DNA from: an uncultured archaeon | Lineage (GTDB): Archaea > Asgardarchaeota > Lokiarchaeia > Sigyniarchaeales > SOKP01 | DNA: 64,000 nt | NCBI GenBank assembly: GCA_964486045.1 | Contig: CAZALK010000005.1 | Location: forward strand, 128,001-192,000 | Reading direction: 5' to 3' | Shown: one piece after another, positions 22,584 through 61,789 of the stretch | How the letters are laid out: every line of letters begins with the position of its first letter | Numbering within the stretch: the first letter of the stretch is position 1 | Program-made: the position numbers and the translations under genes | The notes under the pieces: model-generated | Told to the model about the DNA's origin: nothing | Seen by the model: the letters and a program-made list of their open reading frames with translations, nothing else | Database searches by the model: none

Positions 22584-22873
22584 GATACTAAAAAACCAAG
22601 AGTATTTAGGCAATGTAACTCTTTTTTACTAAATAATGGGGTTTTTTTAGTAATTATTACTTCTAAATTTTGAAGATTTATTCGTCGAATAATAAGGCAT
22701 TTTAGATGCTATCAATGTGATTGCATCAATTAAGATTTCTTCCTTCTGAGATGGGGTACTTAATTATTTTAATGATGAAACCCGTTCATGTGCTTGTCCA
22801 AAATAAAAGTAGGAAGATTTACATGAGCGTAGGTAAAGGAGAAACCCACAACAGAAAGAAAAAATGGAATAAA

Positions 22874-24307
22874 ATGTTAAAAGAAACACATAGAATGACC
22901 GGTACGGTCAAATGGTATAATGAAAAGAAAGGATTTGGATTTATAACATCCGATATGAACAGTGAAGATGTTTTTTTACACCATACTGCACTGCAACAAC
23001 ACGAGGATGTACAGGTCGTCACTGGCGATCGCATTACATTTACAATCCAAAATCAAGAAAAGGGACCCGCTGCTCTTGAAGTAAAACGGTTCTCAGAAGA
23101 AAAAGAAATAATACACCCCGATCAAGCTGACCTTGGAACAAAATTTACCGATCTCGACCTAAAACCAGAAATATTGCACGCAATAAGAGATGCTGGTTAC
23201 GTGAATCCAACACCAATTCAAGCGCAGGCAATACCGATGGTCTTTAAAGGACAAGATTTACTAGGATGTGCCCAGACGGGAACAGGTAAAACTGCTGCAT
23301 TTGCGCTCCCAATCCTGCAGCGATTGATGAATAACCCAAGCAAGGACAGATTGAATATAATAAATAATAATAAGTATAAAATAATAAGTAAAATACGGGC
23401 GCTAGTACTTTCACCCACGAGAGAATTGGCAATCCAGATAGCGAATAGTTTCAGCATTTATGGAAAATACACTGGATTAAACAACGTGGTCATCTACGGA
23501 GGAGTTAGTCAAAATCCACAGGTTGCAAAGCTAAAACAAGGAGTAGATATTATAGTTGCGACACCCGGTCGATTACTCGACTTGATGAGACAAGGACATA
23601 TAAAGCTGAACCATGTCGAGATGTTAGTCTTAGACGAAGGAGACAGAATGCTTGATATGGGTTTCATCCACGATATTCGATCTATCATCAAGAGTGTGCC
23701 ACAAAAAAATCGACAGACATTGCTCTTTTCTGCTACAATACCTCGTGAAATAATTAAATTCGCGAGAAACATTCTGCATGATCCCGTCCATATAAATATA
23801 TCTCCAGATGAACCCACCTTGGAAATAATTGAACAGGCTGCATTTTTTATATCGAAAGAGAAAAAGCAAGCTTTGCTGGAATATTTACTTGCCGATTCAA
23901 CTATTACACGAGCGTTGGTTTTTACACGCACCAAACATGGCGCGAATCGAGTCGTTAAGAAACTACAGAGGAAGAGGATACGTGCCGAAGCGATACATGG
24001 AAATAAATCACAATCCGCACGTCAAATTGCGCTTAAAAACTTTCGGACTGGAAAAGCTCGAGTGTTGGTAGCTACTGATGTTGCTTCACGCGGTCTTGAT
24101 GTAGATGACATCTCACATGTAATCCAATTTGACTTGCCAGATGCGTCGGAAACATATTTGCATCGCATCGGTCGGACGGCAAGAGCAGGTGCGGGAGGGA
24201 CCGCCTTTGCATTCTGCGAAAAGAGTCAATACAAGCAATTAAGAGAGATCGAACAGTTGATTCGAATGCGAGTGAAAATTGTCAAAAACCACCCCTACAC
24301 CAATTGA
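22874..24307 (+). CDS. Cold-shock domain fused to RhlE-like DEAD-box RNA helicase
   Basis: GTVKWYNEKKGFGFI and DVFLH (CSD RNP motifs), then PTPIQ, AQTGTGKT, PTRELA, TPGRL, DEGD, SAT, RGLD and HRIGRTAR. The ORF track starts at 22721, but the likely start is 22874 or 22895. Confidence 0.92.
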   Translation: MLKETHRMTGTVKWYNEKKGFGFITSDMNSEDVFLHHTALQQHEDVQVVTGDRITFTIQNQEKGPAALEVKRFSEEKEIIHPDQADLGTKFTDLDLKPEILHAIRDAGYVNPTPIQAQAIPMVFKGQDLLGCAQTGTGKTAAFALPILQRLMNNPSKDRLNIINNNKYKIISKIRALVLSPTRELAIQIANSFSIYGKYTGLNNVVIYGGVSQNPQVAKLKQGVDIIVATPGRLLDLMRQGHIKLNHVEMLVLDEGDRMLDMGFIHDIRSIIKSVPQKNRQTLLFSATIPREIIKFARNILHDPVHINISPDEPTLEIIEQAAFFISKEKKQALLEYLLADSTITRALVFTRTKHGANRVVKKLQRKRIRAEAIHGNKSQSARQIALKNFRTGKARVLVATDVASRGLDVDDISHVIQFDLPDASETYLHRIGRTARAGAGGTAFAFCEKSQYKQLREIEQLIRMRVKIVKNHPYTN

Positions 24308-24749: not shown

Positions 24750-25448
24750 ATGAAAAAAACTAAAATATTTGCTTTGCTAATCTTTTCAGCCTTAATATTT
24801 GGAGTTATAGGTGGTGTAGTAGGATATCAAGAATATCTTTATAGATGGGAGGATAATGGGGGCGAAGGAACTCATGGTGGATGTCATCATGATGATTCAG
24901 TACCTAGCGTAATCGGAACTTTAGTTTTAACTGTTAATGAAACGGGAAATTTATCTCCAGGACAAGCCTTCACTTTAGAGATCGACGTCCTTAACTTTAC
25001 AGAGGCTACCGTAGATCCGTATGTCCGTTCGGGGAGTGGTAGAGTTTCGGTCGGTCTACCTGGGTATAAAGGTGACAATGCGAAGTTTACATTAGCACTC
25101 AATCACCAGACGCTAAATCGAGGAGAAAAGTTAGATCAATGGGGATCTTATGATCCTGGAGATACCGATAACGTCTTTGAGCTTTTTGCACCAATGGAAG
25201 CTGGAACTTATGAACTTTGGGCAGTAGTAATGGCGGCCATGAATCAAACTGACACGGAATCGTTCAATATTACTTATGTAGAAGATTTTATTACGATTAC
25301 TGTTGTAGCTCCTTCCGGTCCAGCAACAGGCCCAGAAACAATTTCAGGTGGGCTGTTAGTAGTTATTCTTAGCTGTACATTGGGTGTATCCACTATCTTA
25401 ACCCTTAGAATAAGAAAGAGAGCAAGAAGAATAGAGCTGTTGTCATAA
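24750..25448 (+). CDS. Exported, C-terminally membrane-anchored beta-sandwich protein with HGGCH motif (Reeler/choice-of-anchor-V-like)
   Basis: Signal peptide MKKTKIFALL..., GEGTHGGCH, LSPGQAFTLEI, APMEAGTYEL, C-terminal TM plus basic tail. Confidence 0.6.
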   Translation: MKKTKIFALLIFSALIFGVIGGVVGYQEYLYRWEDNGGEGTHGGCHHDDSVPSVIGTLVLTVNETGNLSPGQAFTLEIDVLNFTEATVDPYVRSGSGRVSVGLPGYKGDNAKFTLALNHQTLNRGEKLDQWGSYDPGDTDNVFELFAPMEAGTYELWAVVMAAMNQTDTESFNITYVEDFITITVVAPSGPATGPETISGGLLVVILSCTLGVSTILTLRIRKRARRIELLS

Positions 25449-25697: not shown

Positions 25698-26144
25698 TTA
25701 AAGATTTAAGGTTTGAAGATGTAAGTATCCCTTTTTCGCGAAATCATAATCTAGAAATTCAATTTTTTCAGGGATTATCTTCAAAAGTAATGTCCTCCTC
25801 CCTCGAACAATTTTTTGAGCTTTTTCGAACTCATCATCCCCATCTCTTAAGAAGATTAATCTTTCTTTTCCTGAAGCTGTGATTTGCATACCTTGAATTT
25901 TTCCTTCAGATATGGGGGTGTAAATACCAATGCTAATTTTCGGATTATCTTCGATGTTCTTCACTTTCCTTCCGGGAGCAGGTCCAACATAAATATTAAA
26001 ATTGACTTTTTCGGTATAAAAATCCATTGGCGTTGCGCGAGGAACATTATTGGCACATGTACATAAAACCAATGTTTTTCTTTCATTTAGATATTCACGA
26101 ATTTCTCTTTTTAACTCATCTTCTGGCATTTTCTGATTTGCCAT
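25698..26144 (-). CDS. Pyridoxamine 5'-phosphate oxidase-like flavin-binding split-barrel protein
   Basis: LVLCT...PRATPM, RKVKNIEDNPKISI, GMQI. Confidence 0.8.
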   Translation of the reverse strand: MANQKMPEDELKREIREYLNERKTLVLCTCANNVPRATPMDFYTEKVNFNIYVGPAPGRKVKNIEDNPKISIGIYTPISEGKIQGMQITASGKERLIFLRDGDDEFEKAQKIVRGRRTLLLKIIPEKIEFLDYDFAKKGYLHLQTLNL

Positions 26145-26441
26145 TCTTAAATTCTCACAATTTTAACTTATAATGCACAATTAAAATGAAGAGTTAAAGA
26201 TAAATTTTGGAAAATGTAAATTATTTTGTTTAAGATCATCAAAAAATTCCAAAATTTGGAATGTAATTATCTTATTTCTATAAAACTATTGATTGGGATT
26301 ATCAATATGTTAATTTTGGCACCACTAATTTCAAGATAGGAACATTTAATAGATGGGAATTTATATAAGTAACAGAACTAAACTTTTATTACTTAAAAAG
26401 TTTAGAATTGAAGTTTTTATAACAAATTTAATAAAATTTTA

Positions 26442-27356
26442 ATGAAAAAAATGAAGAGTCAAAATCATAAAAAATCGCTAATATTTGTGTTTGGATTGTT
26501 TTTGATAATAACAGTTGTCGGAGTTTCTTTAAACACGAGTGCATACCCGAATGAGAGTACAATAGGTTGTCACCCTGGAGGTTATACTATCACTGTTGTA
26601 AATGACTCTGTGATCCAAGACGAAGTCTCAACTACACATAATTTGGAAATTACGGCTACAGGTCCAAGTGTTGTTATAGATGTATTTACAGATGCGTTGG
26701 ATAATGAATTGTTTACAATTTTACCAAATACTATTATCACAGACAATTCTGCTGAAGATTTAGATCCTGCAACAGATTCTATTCGAGTGATATTGAATGT
26801 TACACTACCGTCTCAAACTGGTGTTTACACACTACGAATACTCAGTAGGGCACCAACATTATCTGGTGAAAGTACTCCCATAAGTGTTCTTGATATTGAA
26901 GTAACAGTTGGAGATGTGATTGAACCACCACCCTCAACATCGTTATTTGACAAATATAACCTTTATCTTGGAGGAATTGCTGTTCTATTCATGACTATTG
27001 GAACCATCGTATTTCAGATTAACGTGTATAAAAAATTAGATTCTAAATTCCATGGAATTTTCATGACGATAGCATTCATATTAGTCACGGTAAATATCTT
27101 CTTAATTTTGAATGACACTATGATCACATACAACAGATCAATAATCCTAACTAGTAGTCAATATGTAGGTCAATTGAATAACATAATTCTAGGATCAATA
27201 GGATATTTGGCAGGAATTGTTGTTGTATTTGGAATATACACAAATGTACCAGGATTAAAAATGAAATTTGCAGTGTATACAATGCTTTTAGGATGGAGCA
27301 TTAATCTCTTCATCGGAATATTCCTACCTGCTCCAAGTTTTGTTTTAGGAGGTTAA
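26442..27356 (+). CDS. Exported GCH-motif domain plus C-terminal 4-TM cytochrome b561-like (degenerate) domain
   Basis: Signal peptide ending SAYP, TIGCHPGG, LPSQTGVYTL, TM region with FHGIFMTIAF. Confidence 0.6.
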   Translation: MKKMKSQNHKKSLIFVFGLFLIITVVGVSLNTSAYPNESTIGCHPGGYTITVVNDSVIQDEVSTTHNLEITATGPSVVIDVFTDALDNELFTILPNTIITDNSAEDLDPATDSIRVILNVTLPSQTGVYTLRILSRAPTLSGESTPISVLDIEVTVGDVIEPPPSTSLFDKYNLYLGGIAVLFMTIGTIVFQINVYKKLDSKFHGIFMTIAFILVTVNIFLILNDTMITYNRSIILTSSQYVGQLNNIILGSIGYLAGIVVVFGIYTNVPGLKMKFAVYTMLLGWSINLFIGIFLPAPSFVLGG

Positions 27357-27362
27357 AAAAAG

Positions 27363-28685
27363 ATGAGTTTAAATACAAAAAAAGGATTATTTCTATCGTT
27401 ATATTACCTAAGCCCTATAATCGCTTCGATAATCTATTTATTTGAAGAACCAGTAGCATTTTCACTTGTAAGTAGTACCGCGCTTTCACAAGGACCCATT
27501 CTGTACGTGTTTCAATATCTAATACATACAATTGCCAGTATAATAGGAATCTTCTCTTTTATCTGGATGTGTTTCAATATCATCATAATGATAAAAATGA
27601 AAGGGATTGAGAAGAATTTTACTTTAAGGTGGTTAGTCAAATTTCACACAGTAATGGCTGTGATTGCATTATTTCTGGGAATTGCGCATGCACCCTTAGT
27701 GATGTTAAAAACGATGGGTAATGAAGACCAAATAGTTTCAGGAACAATTGGGTTGCTCATATTCATAATCTTAATGATCTTTGCTATAATTTTCATGTCC
27801 AACCGATTGTTAAGCAATACTAGAATCGAGGCTCTGAGATCAACTGCATATGAAAGGAAATTTAGATATGGTGTTAACAAATTCCTCCACAATATAACAG
27901 TGTTGGCAGTAGGGGTCATATTTTTTCACACGTTAATATCAAACACCTCAAAAAGTTCGATGCTCATGGTTGGTGTATATTTCTTTTTCTTTGATGTTAC
28001 TATTATTGGTTGGGTTAGCCATAAGGTGGTCCGAAAGCTTCGTGTGGGAACAGATCCATATTTGTACCGTAAGGTTTCCTGGGATACATTAGCTGAGGTT
28101 GTACCTTGGTTATACCAAGGAGCGAATAATGACTGGGCCATACAATTAATCAAACAAAATCCTTCTCTTTATCCTTGTCTCCAGTGTGGTACGTGTACAG
28201 GTAAATGTCCAGTATCAATTTTTACGGAAGGGGAATATAATTCAAGGAAATTAATACAATGGATATTAAAGGGTCTAAAAGATAAAGTTGTTATTGATAT
28301 GGAACCTAATGTTTGGCAATGCACTCAATGTTATACTTGTGCTGAAAATTGCCCACAACATGTAAAACTGCCTGATATTATTCTTTTCCTGAGAAATAAA
28401 TTAGCAGAACGAGGAGAGGCCCCTGATGGTTTTTTAAGTGAAGCCGAGGCTGTTTATAACAACGGAGTATCTATTCCTCTTCAAAACGCAGTAATAAGGA
28501 GAAGAAAAATATTAGGGCTCCCGCCAATTCCAAAATTTGATATTCAAGAAATTCAGGATATAATGGATATGGCAGGTCTTAATGATATAATTTTAAAACA
28601 TGTTGTTACAGAAAAAGAAGACATAGATACAAAACACATTTTAGAAGAAAAAAGTGAGGTGAAACCATACATTGGCGGAAGTTAA
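27363..28685 (+). CDS. Ferric-reductase-type (NOX/FRE) bis-heme b membrane domain fused to heterodisulfide reductase subunit C
   Basis: About 6 TMs with H-x13-H (FHTVMAVIALFLGIAH) and H-x12-H (LHNITVLAVGVIFFH). Then CLQCGTCTGKCP, WQCTQCYTCAENCP and RRKILGLP (HdrC). Confidence 0.88.
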   Translation: MSLNTKKGLFLSLYYLSPIIASIIYLFEEPVAFSLVSSTALSQGPILYVFQYLIHTIASIIGIFSFIWMCFNIIIMIKMKGIEKNFTLRWLVKFHTVMAVIALFLGIAHAPLVMLKTMGNEDQIVSGTIGLLIFIILMIFAIIFMSNRLLSNTRIEALRSTAYERKFRYGVNKFLHNITVLAVGVIFFHTLISNTSKSSMLMVGVYFFFFDVTIIGWVSHKVVRKLRVGTDPYLYRKVSWDTLAEVVPWLYQGANNDWAIQLIKQNPSLYPCLQCGTCTGKCPVSIFTEGEYNSRKLIQWILKGLKDKVVIDMEPNVWQCTQCYTCAENCPQHVKLPDIILFLRNKLAERGEAPDGFLSEAEAVYNNGVSIPLQNAVIRRRKILGLPPIPKFDIQEIQDIMDMAGLNDIILKHVVTEKEDIDTKHILEEKSEVKPYIGGS

Positions 28686-29580
28686 GAAAAGAGTATTAGT
28701 GTACCCGGGATGTATTATCCGAAATCGTTTACCTTTTCTTGAAAAGAGCGCCCGTCTTGTTTTCGAAAGATTAGATTACGATCTTCAGGATGCACCCTTT
28801 GTTTGTTGTCCAGATCCAGTTGGAGTAGCTTCTATATCTAAAAAAACATGGTTAACTCTTGCAACACTTAATTTAACATTTGGTGAGAGTGAAAATTGTG
28901 AGATTTTATCCCTTTGTAATGGGTGTTCTGAAACTTTAGTGAGAGTCAATCATACAGTAAAAAATGATAAAGAAAGTTTAAAAGAAGTTAACGATATCCT
29001 CGAGAAGAAGGGTTATAAATATAACGGGAATGCTAAGGTTTCTCATTTTGTTAGAACATTAGTTGAAGATATTGGCGTCAAGAAGATTCAGAAAATAGTG
29101 AAAACAGTTTGGGATCACTATAGTGATATACACAATCCAATTAAAGGTTTAAGAATTGCTTCTCATCCAGGATGCCATTATAATAGACCAAGTGAAGTAC
29201 TTCAATGGGATAATCCAATAAATCCACAATACCAAGAAAAACTGATAAAATCAATTGGAGGTATTCCCGTATCATACGATGAAAAAATGCTTTGTTGTGG
29301 ATCTTGCGTTTCTAGAACTAGGGATGATATCGGATTGGAGATTATTAGGAAAAAATACCAAAGTGTGACAGAAGCAGGAGCACAAGTCATTTCTGTGAAT
29401 TGTCCAGCATGTTTCCAAATGATGGAATCACATCAGAGAATTGTAAATAAGAAATTTGAAGATAATTATAATATTCCGGTCCTTTATATAACAGAATTAA
29501 TGGCATTAGCATTTGGATACACACCAGAAGAGATTGGTTTCAAATTTCATTCCATCGGAAGTGGAAAAATTTTCTCTTAA
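28672..29580 (+). CDS. hdrB: Heterodisulfide reductase subunit B
   Basis: Two CCG domains: YPGC, VCCP, LCNGC and HPGCH, LCCG, NCPAC. IPVLYITELMALAFG. Confidence 0.92.
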   Translation: MAEVKKRVLVYPGCIIRNRLPFLEKSARLVFERLDYDLQDAPFVCCPDPVGVASISKKTWLTLATLNLTFGESENCEILSLCNGCSETLVRVNHTVKNDKESLKEVNDILEKKGYKYNGNAKVSHFVRTLVEDIGVKKIQKIVKTVWDHYSDIHNPIKGLRIASHPGCHYNRPSEVLQWDNPINPQYQEKLIKSIGGIPVSYDEKMLCCGSCVSRTRDDIGLEIIRKKYQSVTEAGAQVISVNCPACFQMMESHQRIVNKKFEDNYNIPVLYITELMALAFGYTPEEIGFKFHSIGSGKIFS

Positions 29581-29581
29581 A

Positions 29582-29596
29582 TTTTTTTTTTTTTTT
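29582..29596 (+). terminator. Oligo-T tract directly after hdrB, putative terminator
   Basis: Run of about 15 T between convergent genes. Confidence 0.5.
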
Positions 29597-29630: not shown

Positions 29631-30086
29631 CTAAATATAAAAAGCAGCATATCTTAAAATGCCTGTGGTTAGTTGAACTGCTAAATCTATTACTAATAAA
29701 TATCCAATTATTCTATGGATTAATTTTATCTTCTTTCTTTTTTTTATAATTAAACTAGGAATAATTTGAAGAAAAACTAGTATTACTGCTATTAAACCCG
29801 TTAAACCATGAATACCTCCGAATTCAAAAGTATATTCTATATTTAAAACATTGTCCACTAATATACCAAGTGAGAAAGAAATGACTACAATTATCCCTGT
29901 TATTATAGCAAGAATTCTATGCGTATTAAAAGTATTTTTTGTGATCCTTGATAGTCCGAACCTTCCTGCATTTTTAGTACCAAATATTACAGTTATAAGA
30001 ATTAGAGTAAATGAACTAATACCAAAGATGATATGGAATATTATAGGAATCATATTTTTTATACAATTATTTATTATTTTTTTCAA
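29631..30086 (-). CDS. Four-TM cytochrome b561-like protein
   Basis: Four His, one per helix: IFHIIFG, THRILA, IHGLTG, IHRIIG. The likely start is the ATG at 30053. Confidence 0.7.
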   Translation of the reverse strand: MKKIINNCIKNMIPIIFHIIFGISSFTLILITVIFGTKNAGRFGLSRITKNTFNTHRILAIITGIIVVISFSLGILVDNVLNIEYTFEFGGIHGLTGLIAVILVFLQIIPSLIIKKRKKIKLIHRIIGYLLVIDLAVQLTTGILRYAAFYI

Positions 30087-60778: not shown

Positions 60779-61789
60779 ATGACAGAAATAATAGATTCTG
60801 TACGAGATTTTAAAGAAGAAGGTTTAATTTTTGAAATTCAGCGGTTTTCAACCGAGGATGGGCCCGGTATTAGAACTACTGTTTTTATGAAACATTGTCA
60901 TCTGAAATGCAAATGGTGTCATAACCCAGAATCTTTACTTAATAAACCTCAATTAGAATGGATCGGGCACAAATGCATAGGATGTAAAACTTGTATAGAA
61001 ACATGCAGCCAAGAAGCAATTTTTTTCGATGAAACAGGATTGATAATTAAGAGAAAAAAATGTACTAATTGCCGAGAATGTGTGGAGGAATGCCCATCAA
61101 CAGCATTAAATATGATTGGCAACTGGTGGAATTCTGAGGACCTTTTTTATGAAATAAATAAGGATAAAGTTTATTATTCTGAATCTGGTGGAGGAATTAC
61201 TATTTCAGGAGGTGAACCTACACTTCAACATCCCTTTATTCTGAAATTTTTAAAAAAGTGCAAAGAAAATGGCATCTCAACAGCTTTAGATACTTGCGGT
61301 TATGCTTCAGAAGAAGTCTATAAAAAATTGGTACCTTATATTGATTTGGTTTTGTTTGATATAAAAGAAATAGATAATAAGAAACATTGTGAATTTACTG
61401 GAGTGCCTAATATAAAAATTCTAGAAAATATCTCATGGATTGCTAAATATTTAAAAAATAATAATAAAAGAACGTGGATTCGGACCCCTATTATCCCTGG
61501 ATATACAGCAACTGAAGAAAATATTATGGGGATTGGAAAATTTATTGTTGATAAATTAAGAAATGTTCCCGAACGATGGGATTTATTAGCATTCAATAAT
61601 TTATGTACAACTAAATATGAACGCCTTGGGATTGACTGGCAGCTTAAAGACGAACTGTTGATGACAGGAGATCAAATTGAAGATTTATGTAGAGTTGCTA
61701 AAAACACTGGTATTAAAAATGTTCAGTGGTCAGGTCTTACTCGAAAGATTGACGATTCCCAAAAATTAAATAATAGCATCATTAAATAG
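60779..61789 (+). CDS. Glycyl-radical enzyme activating enzyme with ferredoxin insertion
   Basis: EDGPGIRTTVF, CHLKCKWCHNPE, CIGCKTC, CTNCRECVEECP, SGGEP, DTCG. Confidence 0.93.
   Translation: MTEIIDSVRDFKEEGLIFEIQRFSTEDGPGIRTTVFMKHCHLKCKWCHNPESLLNKPQLEWIGHKCIGCKTCIETCSQEAIFFDETGLIIKRKKCTNCRECVEECPSTALNMIGNWWNSEDLFYEINKDKVYYSESGGGITISGGEPTLQHPFILKFLKKCKENGISTALDTCGYASEEVYKKLVPYIDLVLFDIKEIDNKKHCEFTGVPNIKILENISWIAKYLKNNNKRTWIRTPIIPGYTATEENIMGIGKFIVDKLRNVPERWDLLAFNNLCTTKYERLGIDWQLKDELLMTGDQIEDLCRVAKNTGIKNVQWSGLTRKIDDSQKLNNSIIK

Follow-up and report, generated by a model that had tools for sequence, protein, structure and literature searches.

A NOX-type, predicted di-haem membrane domain fused to an HdrC-like module in Asgard archaea, with an HdrB-like subunit and a probable outer redox partner

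Three adjacent genes of an uncultured archaeon of the Lokiarchaeia raise the question of what an HdrC-like iron-sulfur domain is doing at the end of a predicted haem-binding membrane domain. The genes, called g1, g2 and g3 below, lie at positions 26442-29580 of a 64,000-nucleotide stretch of DNA (the window; positions 128,001 to 192,000 of contig CAZALK010000005.1, assembly GCA_964486045.1). The middle gene, g2, encodes a ferric reductase-type domain (FRD) of the kind found in NOX and FRE proteins, fused to a domain resembling subunit C of heterodisulfide reductase (Hdr). An HdrB-like protein is encoded by g3, while g1 encodes a membrane-anchored protein with a Cys-His motif on its outer side. 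We give slightly better than an even chance to the interpretation that the three products form one membrane complex, a transmembrane electron conduit in which electrons would pass by way of HdrB, the Fe-S clusters of HdrC, a pair of b haems and a c-type haem carried on the outside by g1.

Three open reading frames (ORFs) are present on the forward strand: g1 (304 amino acids, aa), g2 (440 aa) and g3 (302 aa, with a TTG start). The features of the locus, with transmembrane abbreviated to TM, are as follows:

26145..26441, +: AT-rich intergenic region of about 300 bases 5' of g1, presumed from the sequence to contain the promoter
26442..27356, +: g1 (P0001, 304 aa); N-terminal membrane helix, outward beta-sandwich with Cys43-His44 (TIGCHPGGY) and four TM helices (alignment, model)
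27363..28685, +: g2 (440 aa), the whole FRD-HdrC gene (ORF)
27363..28052, +: g2 residues 1-230, six-helix FRD membrane domain; inner site H95 and H176, outer site H109 and H189 (His spacing, conservation, fold)
28053..28157, +: g2 residues 231-265, conserved cytoplasmic linker between TM6 and HdrC (invariant columns)
28158..28685, +: g2 residues 266-440, HdrC-like domain and C-terminal tail (TIGR03290, 5odc_C, Foldseek)
28672..29580, +: g3 (P0003, 302 aa), HdrB-like, two CCG domains (TIGR03288, PF02754 twice, 8rvv_B)
29582..29596, +: T15 tract, likely to act as an archaeal oligo-T terminator (sequence read)

A preliminary description of this DNA had proposed a three-gene operon with a 6-bp gap, then an overlap, and a T-tract at its end, and the layout agrees: g1 and g2 are separated by 6 nt, g2 and g3 share a 14-nt overlap, and the g3 stop codon (29578-29580) is followed by the T15 run. 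The 14-nt overlap is also called in a relative (locus L005), and g3 appears to be translationally coupled to g2.

The membrane part of g2 contains H95-x13-H109 on TM3 and H176-x12-H189 on TM5. In an alignment of 33 full-length homologues, H109, H176 and H189 are invariant and H95 is found in 32. An AlphaFold model of g2 (mean predicted local distance difference test score, pLDDT, of 76) has six long helices within residues 2-226, with the His pairs on helices 88-116 (helix 3) and 169-192 (helix 5); spacing, conservation and model together bear out the earlier report of an H-x13-H and H-x12-H signature in a domain of about six TM helices. Segments rich in Lys and Arg occur at the N terminus, in loops 2-3 and 4-5 and after helix 6. 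Based on their placement, the HdrC part is cytoplasmic, with H95/H176 near the inner face of the membrane and H109/H189 near the outer face. Between the two domains, P232, R236, W240 and D241 of the linker are invariant in the family, and pLDDT is low there in the model.

Structure comparison with VIA-align identified the oxidase SpNOX (8qta) as the best fold match of this membrane domain (Z 16.9, root-mean-square deviation 3.4 Å over 174 residues), and NOX5, DUOX, STEAP and NOX2 gave Z values of 11-14. When a profile of the TM region alone was searched against 1.8 billion representatives, 288 proteins were found at E<=0.001. Those outside the family are chiefly FRD+FAD_binding_8+NAD_binding_1 proteins of about 445 aa (from E 6e-30 down), accompanied by short FRDs without a partner domain and a single FRD joined to a two-cluster ferredoxin; the top FRD-FAD-NAD relative outside the family (P0182) is annotated as coming from a metagenome-assembled genome of Promethearchaeota. 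The Pfam family PF01794 matches 14 of the 33 family members at E<=0.1 (best 5.7e-6). Searches of Pfam and NCBIfam gave no FAD_binding_8 or NAD_binding match in g2, whose C-terminal part is HdrC. The profile and fold evidence, above all the SpNOX match and the FRD-FAD-NAD relatives, upholds the preliminary assignment and indicates that the membrane domain belongs to the NOX/FRE type (FRD), with two predicted haems, and is probably not of the NarI/HdrE type. The HdrC part takes the cytoplasmic position held in NOX by the FAD/NADPH module, and that the nearest relatives outside the family are FRD-FAD-NAD proteins fits the idea of a module swap.

NOX-like FRD-FAD-NAD proteins of about 450 aa are encoded by Promethearchaeota, including genomes G048, G085 and G014. 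The metagenomic protein P0186 (290 aa) has an FRD fused to a plain 2x[4Fe-4S] ferredoxin (PF00037 twice), an architecture without an entry in a 2013 survey of FRD proteins.

Other identities for the membrane domain were considered. A NarI/HdrE-type anchor was supported only by a Foldseek match to NarI (1q16_C) with an E-value of 2.4 and a probability of 0.16, far under the FRD matches, and no NarI-type family was found among the Pfam and NCBIfam matches of the g2 membrane part. Cytochrome b561 reaches a Z of about 15, but it has one His per helix and was rejected, as the four His residues of g2 are paired on two helices. Weak PF01794 matches elsewhere in the genome (contigs C14 and C3) proved to be DUF4405/Ni_hydr_CYTB-type cytochromes b and not FRD paralogues.

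The remainder of g2 is HdrC-like. Residues from about 266 to 407 match TIGR03290 (HdrC; E 4.7e-31, 107.7 bits, below the equivalog cut-off of 160), the family profile aligns with solved HdrC (5odc_C) over 143 positions (E 1.6e-31), and comparisons of the modelled domain with HdrC chains gave a Foldseek E-value of 1.5e-6 and a Z of 9.5. The NCBIfam qmoC model (NF038018) matches the same part at E 1.3e-12. Two CxxCxxCxxxC(P) motifs are present (C272/275/278/282 and C320/323/326/330), and all eight Cys are invariant among the 33 homologues. For g3, the match to TIGR03288 (HdrB) has an E-value of 7.7e-70 and 235.4 bits, again under the equivalog cut-off (345); the canonical HdrB of the same genome scores 402.8 bits. 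PF02754 matches g3 twice, and alignment with solved HdrB (8rvv_B, E 2.5e-56) pairs both C...CC...CxxC sets, with all ten cluster Cys present. The profiles and the invariant Cys thus support the claim that the membrane domain is fused to a 2x[4Fe-4S] HdrC and followed by an intact HdrB with two CCG domains. Because both parts fall below their NCBIfam equivalog cut-offs, we call them HdrC-like and HdrB-like and do not assign them the heterodisulfide of coenzymes M and B (CoM-S-S-CoB) as substrate.

It had been recognized from the start that such a fusion could be an artefact of assembly. Two lines of evidence indicate that it is real: 155 clusters of g2 homologues were found at E<=0.001, with coverage above 90% in most of the 120 clusters listed, and a 19-kb contig from a second sample covers 26200-29481, and with it the fusion, with 15 single-base differences. 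The homologue clusters that carry a name are from Promethearchaeota or Lokiarchaeota, and the public records name the proteins only as "4Fe-4S dicluster domain-containing protein" or "heterodisulfide reductase subunit C". The genome studied here contains a single copy. Among GTDB species representatives, the full-length fusion occurs at only 14 loci, labelled Promethearchaeota, Hermodarchaeota, Thorarchaeota, "uncultured archaeon" (two) and Nanopelagicaceae (one), and it is present in about 17-18 of 161 species genomes of Lokiarchaeia. Among the labelled homologue clusters, FRD-HdrC is restricted to Asgard archaea. The record labelled "Candidatus Nanopelagicaceae bacterium" (L024, DATKTW010000106.1) has a solo FRD-HdrC gene in a DUF2110/proteasome/exosome neighbourhood like that of Promethearchaeota; as it shares this synteny and nests among Promethearchaeota in the tree, it is probably mis-binned.

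The first gene of the operon was left without interpretation in the preliminary description, and we predict that its product is probably the outer redox partner of FRD-HdrC, based on an invariant xxxCH motif and a genomic link to cytochrome c maturation (Ccm) genes. About 55 clusters of g1 homologues were found, nearly all from Promethearchaeota. The model of g1 (mean pLDDT 79) has a helix at residues 7-30, beta-sandwich strands at 49-156 and four helices at 172-294. Cys43-His44, just after the anchor and on the outer side, is invariant in 26 aligned homologues. The motif in the window is T-I-G-C-H, which is not the CxxCH of c-type cytochromes; of the 56 members of the family, 54 carry xxxCH, in which position -3 varies, CxxCH stands at the same site in two, and 42 contain only one Cys. 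In this respect g1 is a putative single-Cys c-type haem subunit. Neither Pfam nor NCBIfam has a family for g1, and generic four-helix bundles were all that a fold search with the model found. The sole full-length match in the ESM Atlas is an uncharacterised cluster from Promethearchaeota, while the beta-sandwich resembles Ig-like domains of a generic kind (TM-scores below 0.45). A feature search with g1 gave scores of at most 0.87, with a hint of Reeler on 12% of one cluster that is treated as a lead only.

Complex prediction for g1 and the FRD domain gave a score of 0.48, compared with 0.00 for the best control; at least 48% of contacts were shared between runs, and the partner had a pLDDT of 71 or more. 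When this score was calibrated, 58 of 80 solved complexes and 2 of 110 mismatched pairs came up to the mark, with scores <=0.60 found for only 7 of the 80 solved complexes and for both passing mismatches. The prediction therefore lends weak support to a contact between g1 and the FRD domain.

Genes of the g1 family and of FRD-HdrC repeatedly lie among ccm genes. At L005 the trio stands between ccmC/ccmE and ccmB/ccmA, and at L106 it is ahead of ccmA/ccmB. At L107, g1 and FRD-HdrC follow two ccmF-like genes, and at L108 two tandem trios are found between ccmF and genes encoding thioredoxin-like (CcmG-type) and DsbD_TM (CcdA-type) proteins. Of the 161 Lokiarchaeia species genomes, 28 carry ccmE and 32 a full-length gene of the g1 family. 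Every one of the 28 is also among the g1 carriers, and in most of them the two genes share a contig and are <=10 kb apart. Within each of the two genera concerned, ccmE and the g1 family are patchy and covary. The genome studied here is 99% complete and has ccmA, ccmB, ccmC, ccmE and ccmF, with the trio on a different contig. In a six-frame census of this genome, no signal-anchored CxxCH protein was found except a zinc-ribbon-like one, no ORF had more than two CxxCH motifs, and, among the anchored proteins, g1 alone carried CH[PG] beyond its anchor. As the genome has Ccm and lacks a conventional anchored CxxCH protein, the xxxCH proteins are the best candidates for clients of its Ccm system.

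The ccm genes of this genome form a cluster at approximately 66.5-76 kb of contig C2 (L103) that is complete but divergent, with genes for an EB_dh-family protein and a paralogue of the exported protein P0326 (described below) followed by ccmC, ccmE, ccmB, ccmA and ccmF. After ccmF are ORFs of 108, 177 and 247 aa; L108 has CC_Se-fam, Redoxin and DsbD_TM genes of the same sizes. The encoded CcmE terminates in TQCS, which puts a Cys two residues from its C-terminal end, and neither HxxxY nor CxxxY is present.

A second candidate for the outer side of the membrane is encoded upstream of the trio:

24750..25448, +: P0326, exported protein of 232 aa; N-terminal signal/anchor, H-G-G-C-H motif, beta-rich domain and C-terminal membrane anchor (translation)

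P0326 has no Pfam or NCBIfam family and is probably an associated haem or metal protein on the outer side. Its paralogue in the Ccm cluster is 39% identical and directly 5' of ccmC, and homologues are present at the Ccm/trio loci L005 (three copies) and L108. Of 79 family members, 62 have xxxCH (HxxCH in 57), 17 have HxxCxH and 59 have a single Cys.

The genome also encodes two paralogues of g1, with H-S-A-C-H and H-x4-C-H motifs and four membrane helices each. Each is followed by genes for a GlcD-like FAD_binding_4 flavoprotein and an HdrD/GlcF-like protein with Fer4 and CCG domains, without an FRD:

C2:76583-80450 (L103:14587-18450): g1-paralogue operon
C2:88389-92090 (L104:6393-10092): g1-paralogue operon

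These operons could encode 2-hydroxyacid dehydrogenases wired to a g1-like outer protein. As they repeat the pairing, the combination of a membrane protein that has an outer xCH motif and a CCG iron-sulfur protein in the cytoplasm appears to be a recurring design in this organism.

How might such a conduit work? On the inside, HdrB would use two non-cubane [4Fe-4S] sites to oxidise a thiol pair or reduce a disulfide. The two [4Fe-4S] clusters of HdrC would pass electrons on to the inner b haem (H95/H176), or accept them from it, across a presumed haem-to-cluster distance, and the inner haem would exchange them with its outer counterpart (H109/H189). Beyond the membrane, a haem attached to g1 through its single Cys43, with His44 as axial ligand, would be installed by the genome's Ccm system and would exchange electrons with other external carriers, for example the HxxCH protein P0326. 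With outward flow, the complex would re-oxidise the thiol product of the many HdrA-MvhD modules of the genome, regenerate the disulfide acceptor and export electrons. With inward flow, as in HdrDE, cytoplasmic protons would be consumed and membrane potential built in a proton-motive redox loop. Outward flow is somewhat favoured; we lean to it because, to our knowledge, no disulfide-forming reaction such as Mcr occurs in Lokiarchaeia.

The conduit may also be part of something larger. We tentatively suggest, as a rather doubtful extension, that Lokiarchaeia possess an extracellular electron-transfer chain, so far unnoticed, built from single-Cys (xxxCH/HxxCH) c-type haem proteins whose maturation depends on a divergent Ccm system, with FRD-HdrC/HdrB as its cytoplasmic entry. 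The thiol pair made by the many bifurcating HdrA-MvhD modules would then be re-oxidised, closing a "heterodisulfide cycle" in a non-methanogen, and electrons would reach minerals, humics or a syntrophic partner.

Several observations weigh against the three-gene conduit. First, FRD-HdrC occurs in three forms. The trio of g1, FRD-HdrC and HdrB is found in the window and at L005, L029, L106 and L108; at L107, HdrB is not called at the locus. A duo of FRD-HdrC and HdrB is found at L001 and L020, and solo FRD-HdrC genes at L003, L021-L028 and L030-L033 (L026 also having separate hdrC- and hdrB-like genes just downstream). The solo form is the commonest, so HdrB is not always co-encoded, and a search for an HdrB orthologue in five "solo" genomes found only paralogues 44-46% identical to g3. 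FRD-HdrC is present without ccmE or g1 in 9 of 18 genomes, which indicates that its core works without g1. Second, the putative haem site of g1 lacks an invariant second axial ligand (Met or His) in the outer domain of the 26 aligned homologues, and the C-x-H variants of the P0326 family (17 of 79) are evidence against a strictly c-type site; we know of no c-type haem site with C-x-H, which would fit a metal site. Third, the counts for ccmE and g1 are not phylogenetically independent, as all positives are in two genera. Fourth, PF01794, the Pfam Ferric_reduct model that the preliminary description had proposed for a check, is matched by the 14 family members given above and has no match to the g2 of the window at E<=1. 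Finally, as both Hdr parts fall below their equivalog cut-offs, the substrate need not be a CoM/CoB-type heterodisulfide, and we know of no evidence that Lokiarchaeia make CoM/CoB-type thiols.

Most solo genes stand in a conserved proteasome/exosome neighbourhood. The gene P0327 (about 140 aa) upstream of the solo forms was considered as a partner and rejected: its product is soluble and without a Cys-His motif, the gene is one of those that make up this neighbourhood, and its synteny is attributed to kinship. In a tree of the membrane domain, the family is split from the NOX-like proteins (99/99), solo and duo forms group in a single clade (87/98), and the basal branching order of the trio forms is not resolved; the polarity of the tree is uncertain, as the outgroup branches are long.

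The likeliest of the alternatives is that FRD-HdrC, with HdrB, is a self-sufficient enzyme resembling NOX or ferric reductases, in which the outer b haem directly reduces a soluble or mineral acceptor, for example an Fe(III) chelate, O2 or humics, while g1 has a structural or anchoring role and its Cys-His pair holds either a metal or no ligand at all. In NOX and STEAP, FRD enzymes that are fold matches of g2, substrates are reduced directly at the outer haem. The abundance of solo genes in genomes without ccmE and g1 is what such an enzyme would predict, and the C-x-H variants of P0326 and the want of a distal ligand in g1 are also in its favour. We nevertheless consider it unlikely for four reasons. 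First, the CH of g1 is invariant, its Cys is usually the only one of the protein, and two variants have CxxCH at the same site. Second, the spacing of g1 and g2 is tight. Third, the Ccm neighbourhood is repeated, and the co-occurrence of ccmE and the g1 family is complete (28/28). Fourth, the g1-FRD complex score, although weak, is clean against its controls.

The placement of the trio among ccm genes at L005, L106, L107 and L108 could also mean that it is an accessory of Ccm itself, exporting reducing power from a cytoplasmic thiol so that haem iron or apoprotein Cys is kept reduced, and either replacing the missing CcmH or supplementing CcdA. This is very improbable: genes for CcdA-like and thioredoxin-like proteins that could export reductant are already present in these clusters, and ORFs of the same sizes are found in the genome studied here. 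The trio is tandem or present twice per genome, which is unusual for a maturation factor, FRD-HdrC is found in only 9 of the 28 ccmE-positive genomes, and in the window's genome the trio and ccm are on separate contigs.

The last alternative concerns HdrA, the absence of which was part of the preliminary description. When the genome's own HdrA and MvhD were used in tblastn searches, neither hdrA nor mvhD was found in the window, where the sole match was a 58-residue ferredoxin-like stretch (60962-61123); nor was either gene present in the related loci fetched with listed gene calls. The rest of the genome encodes approximately 10 HdrA and 9 MvhD paralogues, several apparently without adjacent HdrBC, and has an hdrC-hdrB-hdrA-mvhD-frhB-like cluster. 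Therefore, "without HdrA" is true of the operon and not of the organism, and these paralogues, including hdrCBA-mvhD, are possible partners in a thiol/disulfide cycle. That the HdrC domain of g2 instead docks one of the HdrA-MvhD pairs, with the FRD as membrane anchor or electron outlet of a complete and possibly bifurcating HdrABC-type complex, seems hardly probable: the many paralogues and the full length of the HdrC domain (143 positions aligned with solved HdrC) would permit it, but hdrA and mvhD are missing from the loci, the canonical hdrA has its own adjacent hdrC and hdrB, and the N terminus of the HdrC domain is tethered to TM6 by the conserved linker.

Three neighbouring genes were also noted:

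22721-24307, +: CSD, DEAD and Helicase_C domains, with the cold-shock domain at the N terminus of a DEAD-box helicase
25698-26144, -: PNPOx-like gene (PF01243, 148 aa) between P0326 and g1
29631-30086, -: convergent gene directly downstream of the trio, encoding a membrane protein of 151 aa with weak matches to cytochrome b561 (E 1.2e-5), DUF4079 and DUF420

Based on these weak matches, the 151-aa product is possibly another small haem-b protein; its gene is not kept beside the trio in relatives.

Eukaryotes have no closer known relatives than the Asgard archaea, whose energy metabolism is modelled as fermentation with H2 or formate syntrophy and abundant soluble HdrABC-MvhD, with no high-potential acceptor known. 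If the proposed conduit exists, it would join Hdr thiol/disulfide chemistry to a haem wire and an outer haem protein, giving Asgard archaea a respiratory-like or electron-exporting route and suggesting how the Hdr thiol/disulfide pair could be recycled. The FRD fold lies at the heart of NOX and ferric reductases in eukaryotes; one family of it is specific to Asgard archaea and stands beside NOX-like relatives in the same phylum, and the NOX-like FRD-FAD-NAD proteins of Promethearchaeota are relevant to how eukaryotic NOX/FRE arose. It is possible that the families of g1 and P0326 represent a new class of single-thioether cytochromes.

No description of an FRD-HdrC architecture was found in literature searches, which also returned nothing relevant on Asgard Ccm or Asgard single-Cys cytochromes; as a combination of FRD-HdrC, HdrB and g1, the proposed membrane complex is of a kind not described before. 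Its closest functional parallels are HdrDE of Methanosarcina, DsrMK and HmeCD, which, like g2 and g3 as predicted here, place a cytoplasmic HdrB/HdrC-type Fe-S/CCG module on a di-haem b subunit without HdrA, and a redox loop like that of HdrDE is conceivable for g1-g2-g3. The differences are that the cytochrome b of these systems is NarI/HdrE-type whereas g2 is FRD (NOX-type), that HdrC and not HdrB is fused to the membrane domain in g2, that g1 adds a putative outer haem subunit, and that no link to quinone or methanophenazine is evident. QmoC, from the QmoABC complex of sulfate reducers, is similar to g2, as predicted here, in combining an HdrC-like 2x[4Fe-4S] domain and a di-haem b in one polypeptide. 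However, the Fe-S domain of QmoC is N-terminal and its membrane part is NarI/HdrE-like, while the membrane part of g2 is N-terminal and FRD-type; furthermore, QmoC partners the HdrA-like QmoA/B, and g2 partners HdrB.

SpNOX and the FRD superfamily (NOX, FRE, STEAP and MsrQ/YedZ) share with g2 the six helices, H-x13-H on TM3, H-x12-H on TM5 and a cytoplasmic input module after TM6. In NOX this module is an FAD/NAD(P)H dehydrogenase, and in g2 it is HdrC, with a separate HdrB. The partners of FRD domains in the 2013 survey were FAD/NADPH, FMN, Fer2, Rieske, DOMON and peroxidase modules, with no HdrC, and archaea were regarded there as having no ancient FRD genes (PMC3591440). The pairing of g2 with g1 resembles that of MsrQ with MsrP, in which an FRD membrane protein feeds an extracytoplasmic redox partner encoded next to it. 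According to one account (PMC12525009), MsrQ receives electrons from quinol or a flavin reductase; the predicted donor of g2 is HdrCB, and MsrP is a soluble molybdoenzyme whereas g1 is a membrane-anchored putative haem protein. For the motif of g1, the nearest parallel is the single-Cys (A/FxxCH) mitochondrial cytochromes c of Euglenozoa, which likewise retain only the second Cys of CxxCH, just before the axial His. The g1 protein differs from these in being archaeal and in having a beta-sandwich with membrane helices and a putative haem site, and it is associated with Ccm System I, while the Euglenozoa cytochromes are associated with a kinetoplastid maturation system (PMC8262978).

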